Shown here: positions 21-62,897 of the stretch, piece after piece | How positions within the stretch are numbered: the stretch's first letter is position 1 | How the letters are laid out: each line of letters begins with the position of its first letter | Source: a phage | Sequence record: OZ346212.1 | DNA length: 64,000 nucleotides | Reading direction: 5' to 3' (one strand) | Made by a program: the position numbers and the translations under genes | Notes under the pieces: generated by a model | Databases searched by the model: none | What the model saw: only the letters and a program-made list of their open reading frames with translations | Told to the model about the DNA's origin: nothing

Positions 21-2444
21 ATGAGCATGTGGTCGTTCGACTTTGAGTCATCCGGTTTGCTGGAAGACCCAGATCTTTATTATCACTGCGGCCTGTTTAA
101 AGAGCTGAATAAGAACCGTTTTATGCTGTTCCTTCCTCTAAATGACCGCACACACTACTCCGAGGAGGATATAGAAAAGGCTAAGAACTTCATTCTGGCA
201 AAGAAAACTCTTTATAAAGATTTTGAAGTTCGCATAGCAGATTTTTCAGAGTTGGAAGGTTGGCTTACAGGAAATTCTGACTGGTCACCAACAGCTTTGA
301 ACTGCCATAACTGCTACAGTTATGACTTTATGCTGATGGAAAGATTATCTGGTATTCATTTTGATATGTTCCGTGATCCTAAGTGTATGGGGACTATCAA
401 CGATCACCAGGTTAACCTGTTTGATACGTTGGCGATGAGCCGAATCTTGTGGCCTGATCGCCCTTTACCAAAAGGTTGTCCGGACTCTGTATTCAACCCG
501 GTTACTAAGAAAATGCAGCCTGTTGGTCCTCACGGCCTTATGGCATGGGGCTACGCCCTTGGTAACCAGAAAGTTCAAATTGATGACTGGCGCGATCTTC
601 CGTTATGGAAGTATGTGGATCGTGTATTTGAGGACGTTATCATCCAGGAGCTGCTCTGGAAAGAGCTGGTAGCGGAATCAAAAGGTGTATTCTACGGCAA
701 ATCTGACATGCAGAACTTTATGTACGATCCTGCCAAAGAGAAGCCGAAAGGGTTCAAGAAGATCACCTGGAAGAACGCATTACGTCGAGGCATGTTGCAG
801 CACTTCCTGATGGAGCTGCAGGCCCGTCAGGGTGTATACTTCGACATAGATGGGGCTATTGCTTTACGTGACCGCTGCGATGCGTGGATGAAAGAGATCG
901 CTGATCGTGTTGAACCACAACTGCCTTTAAAAGAGCTGTCAATGTCTCAGCGGCCCAAGTTCCCTGAAAAGCCGTTTAACCAAGATGGGACAATCTCTAA
1001 TAATGGTTGGAAATGGTTAAAAGATAAGCTTGGCTATCCTGTGGACATGAGTGCTTTAGAGTTCAAAGCCCCACCTAAGCGAGCATTTACCTCTACAGGA
1101 GATGTCAGTAAGATGGGGATAAAATGGTGTGAAGAGATGGGCTGCAAAGACCACGATAAGATGGCTGATTTCTTGAGAGGTTATATTAAGGGCACCTCCA
1201 CACCACAACCTTTACCTAAAGAGCTGATGGATCAGGCAATAAGCGATCTGCAACAGAAGCGAATGCCTGACTGCAAGATACCTATGAAAATCAGCAATCA
1301 GGACGACATTAAGCGATACCTGATCAGTGCTGGTTGGCTTCCGACAATGTGGAGAACTAAGGATGTAACTAAGGACAGCAAGAAGAAAGCTCTACCTGAT
1401 GCAGATGTTGATGCACGAGTATATGCATACATGGACGAGCTTTTAGAGTCAGAGTATTGTGACCTAATTATCAACTTCTGGAACAAAACTGATGCTAAGT
1501 TTCAGACAACAGTGCACAAGTTCCGAAGCTTTCCTAACTCCGAAAGGATTAAAAAGGAAGTGTTCGGGAAAATACGCAGAAAAGCCAGGGCACTTATTAC
1601 TTCTCCGCAACTGAAAGATACGTTTGGACACCTATGTCCGAATCTTGAAAAATTGAACGGAGAGATGGCTAAAGATATCGTCTTGTGGTTATCATTGCGA
1701 AACCGCAGATCGGTCCTTGATCCAATCAAGGAGGATAAGGTTGATACTGGTCTTCTTAATCACCCACGTTTGAAGATTGACCATAAGCTTCCTGCTAAAA
1801 GCTCTGGATTAACAAACACTTCCCGACAGAAACACAGTATTTGTGCAAACATGCCTAAACCATCTCCTAAAGTGGTTATGGGTAAAGAGATGCGTAGCTT
1901 GTGGGGTGTTCCTCCTGGATACTTTGAGATCGGTATTGACGGGTCCAACTTAGAGCAGCTTATCGGGGCTTGGGGTGCCTTTGAGTTCGACAACGGCTTG
2001 TACTATGATGTTGTAAGTAACGGGGACGCACACCAAAACAATGCTGAGGCATATACAAAAGTAGCAGGCAGAGAGGTGTCTCGTAACGACGGTAAACCTA
2101 TCACGTATGGGGTTATGTACGGGGCACAAAAAGATAAAGTTGCAGATATGCTGGATATCTCCCCAGAGTTGGGGCAAAGGGTGATCGATGCACTTTGGGA
2201 TGCCAACCCAGGTCTTAAGGGGCGCAAAGAGGATCTGGAGAAATTCTGGGAAGCAACAGGTAAGAAGTTTATCTACTCTTTTGATGGTCATGCTATCTGG
2301 ACCCGATCTAAACACTCTTTACTTAATGCATACCAACAAAATGGCGGCGCATCGTTGTGTGACTTAGTTGGGATACTCATGCACCATCAAATGGTGAAGC
2401 GTGGGTGGTACGATGAAGGTGTTCGTCGTATTATCTATTACCAT
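21..2444 (+). CDS. DNA polymerase, family A (T7 gp5-like), exon 1: 3'-5' exonuclease domain plus polymerase motifs A and B
   Basis: AAGGAG SD then ATG 21; N-terminus SFDFESSGLL...YHCGLF resembles T7 DNAP Exo I; motif A-like IDGSNLEQL and motif B-like RNDGKPITYGVMYG; frame closes one codon after ...RRIIYYH, exactly where motif C (HDE) is expected. Confidence 0.8.
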
Positions 2445-3286
2445 AAATAACATTGTGGCTTCGTGCAGTGATGCACGTCGAAAACCTCTTTAATTGACGG
2501 GAAGGCTAAGTTGACTTTTACACCTAAACATGGTAAAAGCTCAATATGCTAATCCGCAGCGAAGACTAAAGGGGTGTAGTTAAAATGGCTAGATCAGTTG
2601 AGTATCACGGATATACCGTGTTTGATGATGGAACAATACCTTTATCGAAACGTGATCATACAACAATGTTTTGTTTTGATAATGGTCGAGGTTACCTTTG
2701 CGTAACCATGTTCATCGAGGGGAAGCAGTGCACAAAAGGTGTCCACCACTTGGTTGCTGAATGCTTTGTATCAAACCCTGATCCTGAAAGGCTCACATGG
2801 GTGAACCATAAGGACGGAAACAAATACAACAATGCATACTGGAACCTTGAATGGACCACCCCTGGTGGAAATATCAAACACGCTTATGATAATGACCTCA
2901 GAGTAAGGCCAGTCGGTGAGTATAATGCCAACGCTGTACTGACCGAGGATGAGGTAACGGAGATTTGCGAACTGTTACAAAGTGGTTTACGACAATGCGA
3001 GATTAGGGATCTTGGGTATCCTTATGAGACGGTCAGAGCCATAAAGCAAAGAAGACAGTGGAAACATATCTCTAAAAACTACACCTGGTAGTAACGTTCA
3101 GAGACTATCGAAAGCATAGCGCCAACATAAATTGGTGCGAAGAAGCGAGTAGAGTAGACCAGCAAGTGCGGTCGAAATGGGAGGTGCCTTGGTAACAAGG
3201 TAGTGAGATAGTCCGATCCATACAGGAAACTGTATGGCTGTGCACGTAATGGTGCGGGGTAGCTTAACGACCTACCTGAACTATTG
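2445..3286 (+). mobile_element. putative group I self-splicing intron in the DNA polymerase gene (boundaries approximate)
   Basis: Last exon-1 nt is U, last insert nt is G; joining 2444|3287 restores ...YYH|DEYQLQV (motif C); insert carries a free-standing HNH ORF flanked by 140 nt and 195 nt of non-coding sequence. Confidence 0.55.
2585..3091 (+). CDS. HNH homing endonuclease (intron-encoded)
   Basis: HNH signature HHLVAECF...VNHKDGNKYNNAYWNLEW; complete ORF lying inside the interrupted polymerase gene. Confidence 0.8.
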   Translation: MARSVEYHGYTVFDDGTIPLSKRDHTTMFCFDNGRGYLCVTMFIEGKQCTKGVHHLVAECFVSNPDPERLTWVNHKDGNKYNNAYWNLEWTTPGGNIKHAYDNDLRVRPVGEYNANAVLTEDEVTEICELLQSGLRQCEIRDLGYPYETVRAIKQRRQWKHISKNYTW

Positions 3287-3640
3287 GATGAGTACCAACT
3301 TCAAGTCCCTGACACACCGAAGTATAAGACTGTGTACACCTTCGACACAATCGAAGAACTGGAAGCATTTAAGGCAGAGCAGGAGGCCAAACTTCATGTG
3401 TTCGACGGTCATAAGTACAAAAAGGCACGCAAGGATGAGGACGGAAACGAAGTGGTTGACAGAGACGGAAACACGGTGTACGATCCTATCCTGAACGATG
3501 ACGGAAAGCTTGAACTTATCTGGAGCCCTGTGGGTGAAATGGTGGTGCATTGCTTCTGGCAAGCTTCTAAAATGATGGGCGTCCCGTTCCAGATCACGGG
3601 TGAATACCTGTGTGGTCGTAATTGGGGTGATTGTCACTAA
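3287..3640 (+). CDS. DNA polymerase exon 2 (motif C to C-terminus)
   Basis: Frame reads DEYQLQV... supplying the missing HDE; C-terminus ...GEYLCGRNWGDCH parallels the T7 DNAP C-terminus ...GKMGPNWAICH. Confidence 0.7.
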   Translation, partial: DEYQLQVPDTPKYKTVYTFDTIEELEAFKAEQEAKLHVFDGHKYKKARKDEDGNEVVDRDGNTVYDPILNDDGKLELIWSPVGEMVVHCFWQASKMMGVPFQITGEYLCGRNWGDCH

Positions 3641-3689
3641 TGTAAACTATCAACACATGGAAGTGTTGTTGAGCAAAGAGGAGACTTTT

Positions 3690-3974
3690 ATGGTAGTAGA
3701 ACCAACAAAAACATTTACATCCATGACTATCCCTGTTATTATGCAGGTGGAGTGTGTTCAGGTATCTCAAGTGTGGCCTGGCACCAAAATCCCGACAGGG
3801 CCTGATTTCTTTCAGGTTGGCAAAGTGTACAATGTCTGGAAGGCACCAGATTGTTACCCTTTCATCAAAGATGACCGTGGGATGCTGTGGTATCTTGGAA
3901 ATGATTTGACACTGCACCTTGGGAATGCTATTATTGCAGTATTCAGACTTAACAAGAAGGAGACTGATCAATGA
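3690..3974 (+). CDS. hypothetical protein
   Basis: ATG 3690 preceded by AAGAGGAG; longer track ORF (from 3600) would overlap the polymerase 3' end. Confidence 0.5.
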   Translation: MVVEPTKTFTSMTIPVIMQVECVQVSQVWPGTKIPTGPDFFQVGKVYNVWKAPDCYPFIKDDRGMLWYLGNDLTLHLGNAIIAVFRLNKKETDQ

Positions 3975-4198
3975 CGACTTTGGTTAAAGCTACCTTTGTA
4001 GAAGAAAAGATGACAGACCTGTCATTCTTTAAAGAAGGAAAGACCTACGAGGTTTATTACGATAAAGCTCGTGCAAATAAAATGATTAAAGACGAGGAAG
4101 GGGTTGCCTGGTTTATCTCCCATCTGGCAAACGGTGAGTATCATATCTACGGAACCACCCTGCTTGCCAAGTTTGTAGCTGTTGAAGAGGACCTATGA
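3971..4198 (+). CDS. hypothetical protein (75 aa)
   Basis: Track ORF, start overlaps upstream stop (ATGA), co-directional compact packing. Confidence 0.55.
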   Translation: MTTLVKATFVEEKMTDLSFFKEGKTYEVYYDKARANKMIKDEEGVAWFISHLANGEYHIYGTTLLAKFVAVEEDL

Positions 4199-4389
4199 AA
4201 GTAAAGTATCTGGCTGAGGGTATGAGTAGGTATTTCACCCTTGGTGAAGAATATTGGCCATTTACAAGCAACGGCGATGTCTACGTGAAAGATAATTTCG
4301 GCACGCCATGGTTTTTGCACCCTAACGGGTTAGGGTATTCTATTTATCGCAGTGCAATGAGCGACACAACCCTTGCAGAGTTTGTATAG
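4195..4389 (+). CDS. hypothetical protein (64 aa)
   Basis: Track ORF, ATGA overlap with upstream gene. Confidence 0.5.
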   Translation: MKVKYLAEGMSRYFTLGEEYWPFTSNGDVYVKDNFGTPWFLHPNGLGYSIYRSAMSDTTLAEFV

Positions 4390-4399
4390 AGGAGGTAGA

Positions 4400-4771
4400 A
4401 TGTTAGTAAAAGGTACTCACACAGTCAAACAACGTATCGAAGTTGAGATCGATGACTGCGAGCTGAAGCATATTTTACGGTCATGTTCCAACGTTTTGCT
4501 CCTTAGTATTCTCCAGGAGCGAGCGGAGAACGAGTTCTTAAATGCACTGGCAGGCCGCCCTGGTGATTTCTGTGTGCGTAAGCGTGGTGACAACAAGTCA
4601 TGGCTGTGGGAGATAGACGCAGAATGGGATTACCATAAAAATGAGGGTATAGATGAACCTATTCGTGAATTGACGGACAACGAGGTTCAGATGTACAATG
4701 AAGTTTGTCAGTGGGCAAAAAGTCAACAAACTTATCTTGATCCTTGGTGGATGATCGAAAATAGTCGTTGA
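4400..4771 (+). CDS. hypothetical protein
   Basis: Internal ATG 4400 preceded by GAGGAGG; track ORF starts 4373. Confidence 0.55.
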   Translation: MLVKGTHTVKQRIEVEIDDCELKHILRSCSNVLLLSILQERAENEFLNALAGRPGDFCVRKRGDNKSWLWEIDAEWDYHKNEGIDEPIRELTDNEVQMYNEVCQWAKSQQTYLDPWWMIENSR

Positions 4772-4847
4772 CAGGAAGTAAGATTAGATATAAGATGCTT
4801 CACACAAACAGAGCGTTGATTGTTTAACACTTAAGGAGACCGCTAAG

Positions 4848-5102
4848 ATGAAAATTACTCTGAAGCCAGAATGCGTTGAAAATGACCGAGCTTTTAAAGA
4901 TTGCACAATCGGTGCAATTTATGAAGCAGAGTTTTGTGAGAACCCTTTGGTAAAAGCCCTTCTGGAAGAAGGAGCTCCTCTATCACAGGAAGAGCTTGAT
5001 GAGTTGGAAAACTCAGCACAGTGCCTTACCTTTAAAGATGATGAAGGAGACTCTGTCTGGTGCACTGTTAATGAAGTAGTTTTTGTAAAACCTGAACATT
5101 AA
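4848..5102 (+). CDS. hypothetical protein, paralog of 5166-5438
   Basis: SD AAGGAG; shares AF(K/R)DCT...KDD(E/Q)GD...C(T/C)T motifs with the next gene. Confidence 0.6.
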   Translation: MKITLKPECVENDRAFKDCTIGAIYEAEFCENPLVKALLEEGAPLSQEELDELENSAQCLTFKDDEGDSVWCTVNEVVFVKPEH

Positions 5103-5105
5103 TGC

Positions 5106-5134
5106 TTGACAACAGTCATAGGGCCTACTATAAT
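5106..5134 (+). promoter_or_regulatory. sigma70-type promoter (TTGACA-17-TATAAT)
   Basis: Perfect -35 and -10 hexamers with 17-nt spacer upstream of gene 5166. Confidence 0.6.
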
Positions 5135-5165
5135 GGCCCTATCAAAACGAAAGGGGACCACAGCA

Positions 5166-5438
5166 ATGACCAAACAATATCAACGAATTAAAGCCAAGGT
5201 TAAGCCAGACTATCTGGAGAAGGACTCTGCTTTTCGGGACTGCACAGCTGACAAAGTTTACACAGGGGCCGTCCTGTTGAACGATGAACTTGAAGTAGAT
5301 ATTCTGGGTAAAGAGGCCACTATTAAGGACGACCAAGGCGATTATGTTTGCTGCACCACACGTGAGCTAGAAATCTTAGAATACTTCGGTGAAATCTTCA
5401 CCTCTCTTGATGATTACTTAGATGATGAGGAAGCGTGA
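5166..5438 (+). CDS. hypothetical protein, paralog of 4848-5102
   Basis: ATG 5166 downstream of consensus promoter; track ORF start at 5106 is the -35 hexamer itself (TTG). Confidence 0.6.
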   Translation: MTKQYQRIKAKVKPDYLEKDSAFRDCTADKVYTGAVLLNDELEVDILGKEATIKDDQGDYVCCTTRELEILEYFGEIFTSLDDYLDDEEA

Positions 5439-5827: not shown

Positions 5828-6119
5828 AAACATCACCCCCGCAGGGTTCTTAAAAGTATACCGTGAACTGCTATATACTACAGAGGACAGTGTTCTAGAG
5901 TATCCAGAATATCTTTTGCTGTATAAGTATCTGCAGGAGGCTGGTGAAAATCTGCCAGTTAGTGCAGAAGGTGGTCCGAACTGGATATACAGCGCATGGA
6001 GAAAGGTTGACATTCTCCCAGATCCGGGTAAAGATATGGTAGTTTGGCAGCTTATCAACAACATCGGGATTCCAATCTTTGATGAAGCTGTTAAAATCTA
6101 TTTTGAACTTGACGATTAA
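5817..6119 (+). CDS. hypothetical protein
   Basis: Internal ATG 5817 after AGGAGAAG; avoids overlap with previous gene. Confidence 0.5.
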   Translation: MKTENITPAGFLKVYRELLYTTEDSVLEYPEYLLLYKYLQEAGENLPVSAEGGPNWIYSAWRKVDILPDPGKDMVVWQLINNIGIPIFDEAVKIYFELDD

Positions 6120-6136
6120 TATCAGGAGACCTTAAG

Positions 6137-6382
6137 ATGGCTGAAGTAGTTGCTCGCGCAGGACAGAAAGTACGTTGTGTGGAAGTAGGTTTTGGTGGCA
6201 AAGGGTGTCAAAACTTGACTCAAGGTAAGGAATACGCTGTTATTTCTGGTGGTGGCGACGAGAGTATTGTGTTCGAGGGCCACATCCTGGATGCTGAAAA
6301 CTTTGAAATCTTTGACGACGATGGAGATCCGATCACCTGCCTGCTGGACGGGAATTGGGGAACTTTCGAAGTGATTGGCTAA
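6137..6382 (+). CDS. hypothetical protein (81 aa)
   Basis: SD AGGAGA upstream; Gly-rich small protein. Confidence 0.55.
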   Translation: MAEVVARAGQKVRCVEVGFGGKGCQNLTQGKEYAVISGGGDESIVFEGHILDAENFEIFDDDGDPITCLLDGNWGTFEVIG

Positions 6383-6465
6383 CAAATACCTATTGTAATT
6401 TACAGAAGGGGATGCTAAAATAGTGTCTCCTTCTATGTTGTTCAAATAAAATCGGAGATTCCATA

Positions 6466-18927: not shown

Positions 18928-19107
18928 ATGGCTATTATTGCAAAGACCGAGATCGTAGGCTTAGATTCTATTCTCCTCGCATATGAGGAAGCTATAGAAA
19001 TGTATGTGGTTTCCTATGGTGAGTATATCCGTGAATATGAATCTATTGATCTAGCTTTTGAATGTTATATTCGCCAGGTTAATAAAGCGTACGATGATTA
19101 TCGTTAA
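18928..19107 (+). CDS. hypothetical small protein (59 aa)
   Basis: TTGACA promoter, leader hairpin, SD AAGAGGA, ATG 18928; just below track size cut-off. Confidence 0.45.
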   Translation: MAIIAKTEIVGLDSILLAYEEAIEMYVVSYGEYIREYESIDLAFECYIRQVNKAYDDYR

Positions 19108-19198
19108 AATAGTTTGACAACAAACAACCATCTAACAAAGCATAATACATAAGGTGGTAGAATGATCCGCCACCCGGAACAAAGAAGAGGTAAACACC

Positions 19199-19444
19199 AT
19201 GAAAAGCAATAAAGGTTATAACGGTTACAAAAACAAAACTCATTGGAATGTAAGCCTTTGGATTAATAACGATGAGTCATTGTACCGGTTGGCCCAAGGA
19301 TTTATTAACGCTAATGCTAATCGTAATGATGCGGCGCGGGATATGATGCTTTTTCTGGAGCTAACCGGACAAGATAAGACCCCGGACGGCTTCAAGTACA
19401 GCACTACGGCGATCCGTGCCGCGATGGTTGGAATGAAACACTAA
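19199..19444 (+). CDS. hypothetical protein (81 aa)
   Basis: TTGACA promoter at about 19117, SD AAGAGG. Confidence 0.55.
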   Translation: MKSNKGYNGYKNKTHWNVSLWINNDESLYRLAQGFINANANRNDAARDMMLFLELTGQDKTPDGFKYSTTAIRAAMVGMKH

Positions 19445-20436
19445 AAGCACATAGCCGCCAGATCTCAGAATTTACGTACGCTCACCAGTCTATAGCCTGC
19501 TAAGTATTTATTCCAACCATAGAATAACGGAATAGTCAATACCTGCATAAAATAATTATTCGTGTAAACTGCATAACATAAATCGGCTAGGATGTCAACA
19601 TTTTTCGTAAACAGCTCGAAATTATAACGGTGAGTTATAATAAACAGAGAAATCTTTAGTCGTCTAATGTTTACTGTACATTACTATACTGACTGGAATC
19701 ATTAGATGACTAAGAGAAAGATAAGAAATCATTAACAATGCAATTGTTTTATTCGTAACAATAAGGCAACTATGCAAACGGATGGCATGGCGCGACGGAG
19801 TCGCGACATAATATAAAAGCAGTAACCATCACCCCCGTGATAGTTTGTCTGCAAACTATTAATCAGATCATAGTTGCCTTGTATTTAGTTAATCATGACA
19901 TAACAAGCAAGGCAACTATAGATCTGCTAATAGTTGCCCTGCTTTTATATTATGTCATAGATTATTAGCCTGTTAATTGTTAGTCAGTCAAATCAACAAC
20001 GTTATCATTTCAGTCTTTATTGTTGTTGATCGTTATTGTTATCATGCAAACGAATGGCATGGCTTATCATTTTTGAGTAAACAATCTATACGTGAACAGT
20101 GAGGCAAGTTAGCAGCCGATAGATTAGATATTAACCTGCAGACTTCTGACCGTCTAGACGTCTAAACGCCCACACAACAAGGATTATACATACAATACTG
20201 AATGTAAACAGGGCCGCAAAAATGCTACCATACCACAGATTGTAAATTTTTCATGCAGCACTTGACAAAGAGGAGAACTTAATTTTATCAGGATAGGCAA
20301 GAATGTCAAGGCATGACTGCTCACTAAACAAGCAAACAGTCATGTGTGGGAGGTAAGTGATTGTGGTGGTAGGAAATTTAGTTGAAAGATGTGTTATAGG
20401 TGCTTCCAGCACTTTAGCCGGGCAGCTAATTGTGTG
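19445..20436. other. convergent-transcription junction, AT-rich with hairpins and direct repeats
   Basis: No ORF; palindromes ATAGTTGCCTTG...CAAGGCAACTAT, CGCGAC-gga-GTCGCG, ATAGTTTG-tctg-CAAACTAT; direct repeat ATGCAAACG(G/A)ATGGCATGGC twice. Confidence 0.5.
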
Positions 20437-37532: not shown

Positions 37533-38332
37533 CCTCCCTGTGTTTCCACAGGGCCAGACTATCTCTTACTCTACTTCAATAAGATAATAACCCTTTATTG
37601 TGAGATGCTTACCTTCGGCATTTCCTTCGATAGCCCTATGAACGTTACCTACGTTCAAATTTAAGGCTTTTGCACAGGCATAGAGTGAAGGATATTCACC
37701 CACCAAGGTTTTACCTTTGTATGCCTGCACTTTCCTATAGCACTTACCTGGACAAAGTCCTGTTCGGAAAGCATGTCTCTTATTATCTTCCGGCAAAACC
37801 CACTCTAGGTTAGACGGATGATCATTCAATGTATTGCCATCTTTATGATTCACTTCCCAGTTTTCAGGGTCTTCTGGGACATCCGGCAAACAATACAAGG
37901 CAACAATCCTTGAGGTTTGGATTCGAATCTTTTTACCTTTGTGGTTGAAAGAGTACATATAACGGCGTTTAACATGCTTGTTACCTTTTCCATAACCTCC
38001 CCACAATATTGGGTGTAGCATTCCACGTTTTCCGTATACGTTTCCAACCTCATCAATCACATAGTTTGATTCTTCACCATTAAGAATGATCTTTTTCATA
38101 GAGCCTCTCCATTTCGAAGTTAGTATTTCAACTAACCCCTACACTACTTGGTTCAGAAATGTTTGTCAAGCATTTCTGCCTTTCGTTAGTCGTTACAACC
38201 GTTCCAACTCCTGTAAGAACTAGTCACGGGATTGGCATAGCTTTCGCCTTAGCGTTCCCCGTTAGCCGGATTTACCGACCCCTCTTATGAGGTTAGGAGA
38301 GTTTTACAACGGCCAGTTTGTTAACCGTTGAC
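37533..38332 (-). mobile_element. putative group I intron (T4-like core) in nrdD, HNH ORF in 3' region (boundaries approximate)
   Basis: 5' portion contains CUAACGGGGAAC...CAAUCCCGUG, matching the T4 td intron core AAACGGGGAAC...CAAUCCCGUG; exon 1 ends in U, insert ends in G; splice restores INTLTS|RQQTPF. Confidence 0.6.
37566..38099 (-). CDS. HNH homing endonuclease (intron-encoded)
   Basis: WEVNHKDGNTLNDHPSNLEW HNH signature; lies between the two nrdD halves. Confidence 0.8.
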   Translation of the reverse strand: MKKIILNGEESNYVIDEVGNVYGKRGMLHPILWGGYGKGNKHVKRRYMYSFNHKGKKIRIQTSRIVALYCLPDVPEDPENWEVNHKDGNTLNDHPSNLEWVLPEDNKRHAFRTGLCPGKCYRKVQAYKGKTLVGEYPSLYACAKALNLNVGNVHRAIEGNAEGKHLTIKGYYLIEVE

Positions 38333-62084: not shown

Positions 62085-62159
62085 GCCCTGTTAGCTTAGT
62101 GGATAAAGCAGCGGCCTTCTAAGCCGTTGACACTGGTTCGAGTCCAGTACGGGGTGCCA
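62085..62159 (+). tRNA. tRNA-Arg (anticodon UCU)
   Basis: Hand-folded cloverleaf: acceptor GCCCTGT/ACGGGGT, anticodon loop CTTCTAA, T-loop TTCGAGT, encoded CCA. Confidence 0.8.
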
Positions 62160-62163
62160 AATT

Positions 62164-62250
62164 GGGGAGTTATCCCGTAGAGGTAGCGGTGTAGACTGTA
62201 AATCTATTGTCATTGCGACTCGGGTGGTTCGACTCCACCACTCCCCACCA
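62164..62250 (+). tRNA. tRNA-Tyr (anticodon GUA), long variable arm
   Basis: Acceptor GGGGAGT/ACTCCCC, anticodon loop CTGTAAA, T-loop TTCGACT, CCA; overall like E. coli tRNA-Tyr. Confidence 0.8.
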
Positions 62251-62364
62251 AATTTATATTTTTAGATGCATAAATAATACAGATAATGGCATTGATATTT
62301 ATCGTCGTTTATACTAGTCACTAACTGCTCGAAAATCAGTGTCATTATCAGTATTATTTATAAA

Positions 62365-62455
62365 GGAGGGTAGGGAGCAATGGTGCTCAATCGGTCTTGA
62401 AAACCGTCCCGTTGAGGATGACTCGATGATGGTTCGATTCCATTACTCTCCGCCA
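62365..62455 (+). tRNA. tRNA-Ser (anticodon UGA), long variable arm
   Basis: Acceptor GGAGGGT/ACTCTCC, anticodon loop CTTGAAA, 20-nt variable arm, T-loop TTCGATT, CCA. Confidence 0.75.
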
Positions 62456-62553
62456 CATTGTTGACCTTGTAATTAAGCGAAAGTCGGAAGCAGAACCGGA
62501 TTATCAAATGTTACAGTCGTCATCGCCGACTAGCAACATGGTCAACATACTGA

Positions 62554-62650
62554 GCTAGGTAAGCCCTTTGGCAAGGGCGAGGATTTTTAATCCTGAAAAT
62601 AGACGAGGTAGTCGTTGAATACATAGGTGGTTCGATTCCATCACCTAGCA
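62554..62650 (+). tRNA. atypical 97-nt tRNA-like gene (possibly Lys-UUU with about 29-nt variable region) or pseudo-tRNA
   Basis: Perfect acceptor GCTAGGT/ACCTAGC, D-arm GCCC...GGGC, hairpin with loop TTTTTAA, extra hairpin ACGA-ggtag-TCGT, T-arm GGTGG-TTCGATT-CCATC; no encoded CCA. Confidence 0.35.
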
Positions 62651-62657
62651 CCTTTTT

Positions 62658-62733
62658 GCTGATGTAGCACAATCGGTAGTGCAATTGATTTGTAATCAAT
62701 AGGTTGTAGGTTCAAGTCCTGCCATCAGCACCA
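62658..62733 (+). tRNA. tRNA-Thr (anticodon UGU)
   Basis: Acceptor GCTGATG/CATCAGC, anticodon stem ATTGA/TCAAT with loop TTTGTAA, T-loop TTCAAGT, CCA. Confidence 0.85.
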
Positions 62734-62734
62734 A

Positions 62735-62809
62735 GGCCCTGTAGCTGGAAGGTTCAAGCAAGCGACTCATAATCGCCAGACGGTGGTTCAATTCCACCCA
62801 GGGCCACCA
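62735..62809 (+). tRNA. tRNA-Met or Ile2 (anticodon CAU), elongator type
   Basis: Acceptor GGCCCTG/CAGGGCC fully paired (not initiator-like), anticodon loop CTCATAA, T-loop TTCAATT, CCA. Confidence 0.75.
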
Positions 62810-62820
62810 AATAGTAAATA

Positions 62821-62897
62821 CTCCGCGTAGCTCAGCTTGGTAGAGCGCCTGATTTGGGATCAGGAGGTCGAGTGTTCGAATCACTCCGTGGAGACCA
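62821..62897 (+). tRNA. tRNA-Pro (anticodon UGG)
   Basis: Acceptor CTCCGCG/CGTGGAG, D-arm GCTC...GAGC, anticodon stem CCTGA/TCAGG with loop TTTGGGA, T-loop TTCGAAT, CCA. Confidence 0.85.

Follow-up and report, generated by a model that had tools for sequence, protein, structure and literature searches.

Probable genome-end region, shortened and rearranged, with a conserved composite palindrome in a Vequintavirus

The junction between concatenated genomes of phage T7 consists of a 160-bp terminal repeat flanked by short repeats, and its processing passes through a hairpin-ended intermediate. T7 has to duplicate its terminal repeat, which is contained in the known hairpin-ended intermediate (PMC4281155). 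According to a 2026 review, the cutting of concatemers and the duplication of the repeat are still poorly understood, even for T7. In Vequintavirus, the rV5 genome paper drew a gene-free box as 'non-coding' and left it uncommented (PMC3606486), a long-read preprint on Bas51 and Bas54 named the box the terminal repeat region, and phage Gotham was deposited with 459-bp direct terminal repeats (DTRs) at both ends of its record, the two copies of which we verified to be identical. Short DTRs have also been described across the wider group, with lengths of 514 bp in KPP-1 (T7-type packaging according to PhageTerm), 342 bp in BME3 and 475 bp in Jab. Here we analyzed the junction at positions 19445-20436 of a 64,000-nt stretch of phage DNA (record OZ346212.1; the whole stretch is called the window), in which a long composite palindrome lies between converging gene blocks. 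The junction is probably the shortened and rearranged genome-end (concatemer-junction) region of a Vequintavirus, with the palindrome as a putative accessory cis-acting DNA element of T7-type ends. The Vequintavirus terminal repeat region is already in the literature, thinly, and the window is a damaged further example of it. What is modestly new is a palindrome that keeps its position beside the repeat in three lineages, together with phage FV3 as its natural deletion; neither the palindrome nor FV3 in this capacity was described in the literature we searched.

The window comes from a Vequintavirus, an rV5-like myovirus of about 137 kb. Its left 19.4-kb flank is covered to 100% by ordinary members in colinear order, and its right 24.7-kb flank is 99.2% identical to phage magaca in a single piece. 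The junction matches the ~2.5-kb gene-free box of rV5, which sits between the same converging gene blocks. In direct homology to the terminal repeat region known from the Gotham DTR, the rV5 box and Bas51/Bas54, window positions 19451-19961 share 90-95% identity with the left part of this region, 20107-20277 is a piece of the DTR, and the sequence from 20267 onward forms the right edge. The window differs by a loss of ~340 nt on the left and by the inverted orientation of the DTR piece, a form seen in no other record. The first minus-strand gene is found only in Vequintavirus and provides no anchor for other genera. The loci used for comparison are labeled L001 (rV5), L002 (nom), L003 (navn), L013 (MG065658.1), L016 (FV3, NC_019517.1), L019 (KPP-1) and L031 (BME3).

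In relatives, the physical ends of the genome fall inside this box, at the two boundaries of the DTR. The 459-bp DTR of Gotham maps to 3847-4305 in rV5 (L001), 3728-4186 in nom (L002) and 5987-6445 in navn (L003). The records of Gotham, bov10K2, YN3 and EdH4, from four countries, begin at the same nucleotide, GGCGGACG, and those of Gotham and EdH4 also have their last nucleotide in common, ...AAAAACTTGTC (...GAGGAGAAAAACTTGTC). A ligation-library study likewise indicates fixed ends in relatives (PMC7471380). Compared with a T7-type DTR region, the junction is homologous to DNA that is identical at both virion ends, and the end nucleotides are shared across records; a complete repeat with both cut sites is absent from the window. 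The DTRs of Gotham and KPP-1 have end motifs in common, G[GA]CGGAC[GA]G at the start and CTTGACAA[AG]GAG[GA]AGA...TTGT at the end, and a search with the shared DTR-end motif recovered mostly unrelated IMG/VR contigs. A partly palindromic motif, AATGA(G/T)AAT...ATTATCATTTG, occurs in or near the DTRs of KPP-1 (L019 3017-3530), BME3 (L031 1-342 and 1158-1240) and FV3 (L016 4042-4192), and may be a protein-binding site shared by the three lineages. Its reverse complement is loosely similar to the Vequintavirus 20-mer (ATGCAAACGAATGG...) described below.

The anatomy of the intact box was derived from an alignment of 14 Vequintavirus relatives in the orientation of the window. Its leftmost part is a conserved non-coding block (mean pairwise identity 0.83-0.96) that ends in the first copy of a 20-mer and the composite palindrome. 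Conservation drops sharply exactly where the right 18-nt arm of the palindrome ends (19956-19958), and the next ~250 nt are hypervariable and rich in indels and short repeats (GTAAACAGT, CGTGAACAGT, TGTGTCA). The position of 20-mer copy 1 is kept in all 14 relatives, 12 of which read ATGCAAACGAATGGCATGGC there. Copy 2 forms a conserved island amid the hypervariable DNA, being present in 13 of the 14 and identical in 12. Identity then rises from below 0.5 to above 0.9 exactly at the DTR boundary, where ...TGTGTCA meets GACAAGTTTTTC... Beyond the DTR, a short variable stretch is followed by ~0.8 kb of conserved non-coding DNA with a sigma-70 promoter aimed at the repeat. The palindrome module lies ~200 nt inboard of the DTR and is nearly invariant in 13 of the 14 relatives; the sole indel within the palindrome, of 33 nt (rV5, C7 and phita32), falls inside a hairpin loop. 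Within the conserved DNA to the right, a 200-nt non-coding block (rV5 L001 ~4884-5083) is 100% identical in all 14 phages, as compared with 87-99% for the neighboring genes. It lies directly downstream, on the minus strand, of the near-consensus sigma-70 promoter; in the window, where it would sit just left of 20267, it is missing. This block has no Rfam match and no significant fold (z = -1.45).

In the window, the palindrome is organized by a perfect 18-nt inverted repeat, GACATAATATAAAAGCAG and CTGCTTTTATATTATGTC at 19805-19822 and 19939-19956, which surrounds every smaller hairpin. It is the sole perfect inverted repeat with arms of at least 13 nt and a gap of 20-300 nt in the 64 kb (shuffle mean 0.3). 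The original prediction, made from the letters alone, overlooked this main organizing feature, having pointed instead to several smaller palindromes and a 20-nt direct repeat in a gene-free, AT-rich junction. Those palindromes and the repeat are all present and exceed chance expectation, as judged by shuffles and by fold z-scores. Folding of 19755-19965 gave z = -8.5 for the plus-strand RNA and -7.9 for the minus-strand RNA, and the DNA fold of 19795-19965 gave z = -10.0. The direct repeat was placed correctly and with the right spacing (272 nt), whereas its two copies are not identical, differing by a single base (G/A at position 10, 95% identity). With up to three mismatches allowed, these are the only two sites for the 20-mer in 64 kb, where shuffles expect 0. 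A shorter motif, ATAGTTGCCYTG, has three exact copies and one copy with a single mismatch inside 180 nt; elsewhere in the window there is one match with one mismatch, at 37896, and the others carry two, and the total of 13 against 9.9 expected is at chance level. The region is AT-rich only to a modest degree, with a GC content of 0.375 against about 0.42-0.43 nearby. That it holds no gene was borne out, as none of its five open reading frames (ORFs) of at least 40 aa matched PHROGs or Pfam, whereas both flanking genes did (phrog_871/DUF7249 and phrog_12108). To regard the junction as more structured than termination needs was a fair judgement; the canonical terminators of relatives sit elsewhere. 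Conservation in relatives, which had been proposed as a check, was found across ~118 of them, in which the palindrome module is nearly invariant. The coordinates of the features are collected in Table 1. The terminator scan rejects loops of more than 8 nt, and the plus-strand hairpin is uncalled for that reason.

Table 1. Features of the junction in the window and their positions
Feature	Position	Strand	Details
Left deletion junction	19451-19459		9-nt overlap of aligned blocks, ATAGC exactly shared; window 19000-19459 = navn L003 1993-2452, window 19451-19961 = L003 5273-5783
Conserved non-coding block left of palindrome module	19451-19771		With imperfect hairpin 19656-19713; without conserved ORF; kept in FV3
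20-mer copy 1, ATGCAAACGGATGGCATGGC	19772-19791	+	Abuts palindrome
Inverted repeat CGCGAC/GTCGCG	19791-19806
Composite palindrome	19805-19956		Outer arms 18 nt, perfect; inner hairpins 19824-19845, 19839-19858, 19870-19919, 19905-19944
Terminator-like hairpin AACTATCAC-GGGG-GTGATGGTT, then ACTGCTTTTATATT	19824-19845	-	Called by terminator scan; kept in rV5 (L001 3395-3374)
Inverted repeat ATAGTTTG/CAAACTAT	19839-19858
12-bp stem ATAGTTGCCTTG/CAAGGCAACTAT	19870-19881 / 19908-19919		Loop 26 nt
Hairpin, 14/15 pairs, 10-nt loop, then TTTTATATTATGTC	19905-19956	+	Possible non-canonical terminator
Start of hypervariable spacer	19957-20043		Several mosaic versions among relatives; identity 0.06-0.5, many indels; window version common to phage nom
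20-mer copy 2, ATGCAAACGAATGGCATGGC	20044-20063	+
Remnant of short-repeat array (GTAAACA, CGTGAACAGT)	20064-20106		In relatives the array reaches the DTR boundary
DTR fragment, inverted relative to all relatives	20107-20277	-	Positions 282-450 of the Gotham 459-bp DTR, 94.7% identity
Breakpoint between inverted DTR fragment and segment D	20267-20277		Window ...CTTGACAAAGAGGAGAA joined to CTTAATTTT (...GAGGAGAA joined to CTTAATTTT); segment D in relatives ...GAGAAGAACTTAATTTT
Sigma-70 promoter, near-consensus, TTGACA-16-TG-TAAAAT	20282-20309	-	Leftward; 11/12 matches; kept in rV5 (L001 5137 to 5110)

One natural variant lacks the palindrome. In FV3 (L016 ~3570-3600, equivalent to window 19772-20063), a single hybrid 20-mer joins the left flank of copy 1 to the right flank of copy 2, and the ~270 nt between the repeats are gone. 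The palindrome was removed here by recombination between the two 20-mers. The palindrome-less form was found in FV3 only, among ~119 Vequintavirus phages. Because FV3 is viable without the whole palindrome and one 20-mer, the module is dispensable, yet it is almost always kept.

Counterparts of the palindrome were found in two other lineages. KPP-1, a Mydovirus, has one perfect 21-nt inverted repeat (L019 3839-4044) with a 164-nt interior and three hairpins, 308 nt inboard of the mapped DTR (z = -11.1). In BME3, a Justusliebigvirus, the arms of the single perfect inverted repeat measure 15 nt and enclose 117 nt, and the palindrome lies 282 nt inboard of the DTR (z = -8.5). Together with PVP-SE1-type phages of Mydovirus and Seunavirus, these resemble Vequintavirus in having a gene-free convergent junction with a DTR of 340-515 bp, one perfect inverted repeat of 15-21 nt around two or three hairpins at 200-310 nt inboard (z = -8.5 to -11), and repeated motifs of ~20 nt around the palindrome. 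They differ in that their palindromes have no detectable sequence similarity to that of the window, and the arms of the KPP-1 palindrome are not T-rich. Comparison of the Vequintavirus and KPP-1 junctions likewise revealed no nucleotide similarity past short motifs. The KPP-1-type palindrome is kept across Mydovirus/Seunavirus phages of five host genera, and among phages of Klebsiella, Cronobacter, Proteus, Salmonella, Escherichia and Enterobacter its nucleotide identity is 75-99%. Covariation was examined in an alignment of nine Mydovirus/Seunavirus phages (A1), with 500 shuffles and slid alignments as controls. Seven base pairs, including three of the outer stem, showed compensatory double changes; the shuffles gave 2.8 +/- 1.1, with 0 of 500 reaching 7, and the slid controls gave none. 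Across the alignment, 98.6% of the cells are paired, and large indels are confined to loops. Because the compensatory covariation is significant, intrastrand pairing is under selection in the Mydovirus/Seunavirus lineage. A 54-nt insertion in NDO71 and Mydo also falls in a hairpin loop of the palindrome.

The likeness to the T7 concatemer junction lies in a short exact terminal repeat, fixed ends, adjoining arrays of short repeats and a nearby inverted repeat capable of forming a hairpin. In contrast with T7, the phage of the window is an unrelated myovirus, and its palindrome is far larger (~150-200 nt with three inner hairpins) and dispensable in FV3. In the model that we favor, the palindrome module would serve as an accessory cis element, acting at the DNA level, in the processing of T7-type ends. 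The palindrome might extrude as a hairpin or cruciform, the 20-mers would be putative protein-binding sites, and the module would help to position or prime the steps by which the terminal repeat is cut and re-synthesized on concatemers. The packaging signal proposed in the original prediction agrees with this in part: the mapped virion ends and the 459-bp repeat lie in the box to which the region is homologous. The palindromes and 20-mers that had been flagged, on the other hand, lie ~200 nt inboard of the repeat and are dispensable in FV3, and most of the repeat itself is missing or inverted here.

Several points weigh against a role of the module in end processing, or against fixed ends altogether. 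The link of the palindrome and the 20-mers to terminase or end processing is one that we infer. The viability of FV3 means that the module is not essential for packaging or replication. The covariation test does not distinguish a DNA hairpin from an RNA structure, and the Vequintavirus palindrome is too invariant for such testing. A phage with exactly the sequence of the window could not use Gotham-type ends, because both DTR boundaries are missing, and part of the sequence may be an assembly or amplification artefact. Finally, circular permutation or headful packaging has been ascribed to Vequintavirus genomes in two papers. The evidence on a headful pac site is split, in that these two papers infer permutation on the basis of Nextera or PhageTerm, whereas the ligation library, the long reads and the shared record ends indicate fixed ends. 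The description of the bov phages as 'circular permutated' derives from Nextera tagmentation data (PMC8407724). We gave less weight to the permuted or headful reports because of this use of tagmentation. Nextera tagmentation under-represents DNA ends. Version 2 of the bov10K2 record (MT884008.2) opens at the first nucleotide of Gotham's terminal repeat and finishes just before that repeat; this record start suggests that termini are under-called from tagmentation libraries. Vequintavirus records are better opened at GGCGGACG than treated as circularly permuted.

Other functions of the palindrome were weighed against the same evidence. It is rather unlikely, in our estimation, that the palindrome is only a strong convergent (bidirectional) terminator or insulator without any role in DNA end processing. 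The location at a convergent junction fits such a function. Like bidirectional intrinsic terminators, the palindrome has hairpins between an A-tract and a T-tract, here formed by the 18-nt arms, with converging units on either side, and its dispensability in FV3 suits an accessory element. The minus strand has the stem-loop and U-tract of a terminator, called by the scan and kept in rV5, and the plus strand has a 15-bp hairpin followed by TTTTATATTAT, although this hairpin has a loop of 10 nt and an interrupted U-tract and was not called by the scan. However, the palindrome is much longer than such terminators, is composite, and lies 0.3-0.9 kb from the gene ends; its near-invariance and the conserved 20-mers that flank it also exceed what is usual for terminators. 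In rV5 it is already bracketed by canonical terminators on both strands (L001 2679-2698 on the plus strand and 3560-3547 on the minus strand), and in KPP-1 and BME3 canonical terminators stand directly after the last genes, apart from the palindrome. In all three phages, canonical terminators stand between the last genes and the palindrome; only in the window, through the deletion of 2.8 kb, does the palindrome come first after the converging genes. Moreover, its distance is fixed relative to the DTR, and not to the gene ends, in three lineages. Because of the separate canonical terminators, the KPP-1 arms that are not T-rich and the distance fixed to the DTR, a role in transcription only is unlikely to explain the element fully, and we therefore favor an accessory role at the DNA level. 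In the window, the palindrome hairpins and T-rich arms probably act as a de facto convergent transcription stop as well, since the canonical plus-strand terminator has been deleted and the palindrome is the first plausible stop. A second origin of replication had also been suggested; in that case, an initiator would bind the 20-mers and the ATAGTTGCC motifs as iterons, next to a palindrome that is AT-rich and easily unwound. The repeated motifs are confined to the region, its GC content is lower than that of its surroundings, and the cumulative GC-skew maximum falls in it; moreover, T7-group phages have promoters and origins near their ends. Nevertheless, we consider an origin very unlikely. 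There are just two 20-mers, the 12-mers alternate in orientation as hairpin arms and form no tandem array, and a search for DnaA boxes found none. The skew switch coincides with the change in transcription direction, to which the authors of the rV5 genome also ascribed it (PMC3606486), and FV3 replicates without the palindrome and one 20-mer. The suggestion of a small RNA (sRNA) fared no better. Transcription from a promoter-like site at 19976 to 19949 to the terminator at 19845-19824 would yield a structured minus-strand sRNA of ~130 nt. The site (TTAACA-16-TG-CATAAT) matches at 10 of 12 positions, a terminator-like hairpin lies downstream, the fold is strong, and the covariation in Mydovirus/Seunavirus is compatible with an RNA structure. 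Against it, the -35 element of this lone promoter-like site lies in the non-conserved spacer, where rV5-type variants have a terminator, and in Rfam scans that covered the window region and the full rV5 box, the only match at E <= 1 was a chance one to a plant miRNA. No Vequintavirus transcriptome was found in the literature searched. Taken together, an sRNA is highly improbable. A T5-style injection-stop signal was rejected, as the distance from the palindrome to the end is short (~0.66 kb) and contains no genes.

The window differs from all relatives in the arrangement of the box. On the left, ~2.8 kb is lost with respect to every relative examined, including seven small genes, the canonical plus-strand terminator and 340 nt of the box. 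The missing genes are the early-type genes navn_136 to navn_130, which nearly all relatives carry (window 19199-19459 compared with navn 2192-5273), and the last gene kept encodes the DUF7249/phrog_871 protein. On the right, the loss is ~1.1 kb. It comprises 290 of the 459 nt of the DTR, with both of its boundaries (the start at GGCGGACG as well as the last 9 nt), and ~790 nt beyond the DTR on the right; a search across the whole window did not find these missing parts. What has been kept is half of the conserved block (549-1000 of 244-1000 in the Gotham extract), the entire palindrome module, a piece of the repeat spacer, ~170 nt of inverted DTR and, of the conserved DNA to the right of the DTR, the promoter-proximal ~170 nt (the promoter and the DNA up to the first minus-strand gene). 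The breakpoint at the right edge of the inverted fragment sits 9 nt from the right virion end of Gotham and EdH4, and the fragment is joined through 4 exactly matching nucleotides, inside a similar patch of 11 nt, to a site on the opposite strand ~1.25 kb upstream. Such a breakpoint is the product expected of a trimmed free 3' end that folds back and primes synthesis, in vivo or during amplification. The distance of only 9 nt from a mapped virion end argues that a DNA end existed at this site in this lineage, whether the arrangement is a variant or an artefact.

There is a real possibility, somewhat short of even, that the arrangement in the window is an amplification or assembly artefact at a physical DNA end, for instance by fold-back priming in multiple-displacement amplification, or that the genome is defective. 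The rearranged junctions were absent from ~120 phage records, from viral, metagenome and genome contigs, and from E. coli genomes and plasmids. The inverted join through 4 nt so close to a mapped 3' end has the pattern of snap-back priming, and neither the DTR boundaries nor the 200-nt block fully conserved in 14 relatives are present. However, both flanks are perfectly colinear with normal genomes. The microhomologies of 1-9 nt at the junctions are too short for misjoins in a de Bruijn graph, and true illegitimate recombination fits them too. The region is also naturally plastic, as seen in the hypervariable spacer and in the deletion of FV3 itself, and an artefact would require each of three separate junctions to dominate the reads. 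Odd-looking Vequintavirus assemblies in this box merit a check of the raw reads.

In terms of the genome-end region that we favor, an unexplained 'non-coding box' of widely used therapeutic E. coli phages is now placed at the genome ends. Beside the repeat lies a structured element that keeps its position in three lineages and is under structural selection in one of them, and the natural deletion in FV3 makes its role directly testable. A bolder proposal is that a conserved hairpin or cruciform cis element regenerates short terminal repeats from concatemers across Vequintavirinae and Stephanstirmvirinae, with the palindrome and its bracketing 20-mers as the form found in Vequintavirus and the inverted DTR fragment of the window as a fossil of fold-back synthesis from the free 3' end of a virion. 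We regard this as speculative and, on balance, unlikely. If true, a T7-like hairpin mechanism would operate in an unrelated lineage, and the inverted fragment would be an in vivo trace of that chemistry.

Two observations concern other records and other parts of the window. About 20 GenBank records of 'Campylobacter phage' (MG0656xx, flagged UNVERIFIED; for example MG065658.1) are ordinary Vequintavirus genomes, 94-96% identical to the window. The tRNA genes of the window are found only at 62 kb, and within this cluster (62085-62897) ARAGORN calls a 99-nt tRNA-like gene with a four-base anticodon (atcc) at 62554-62652.

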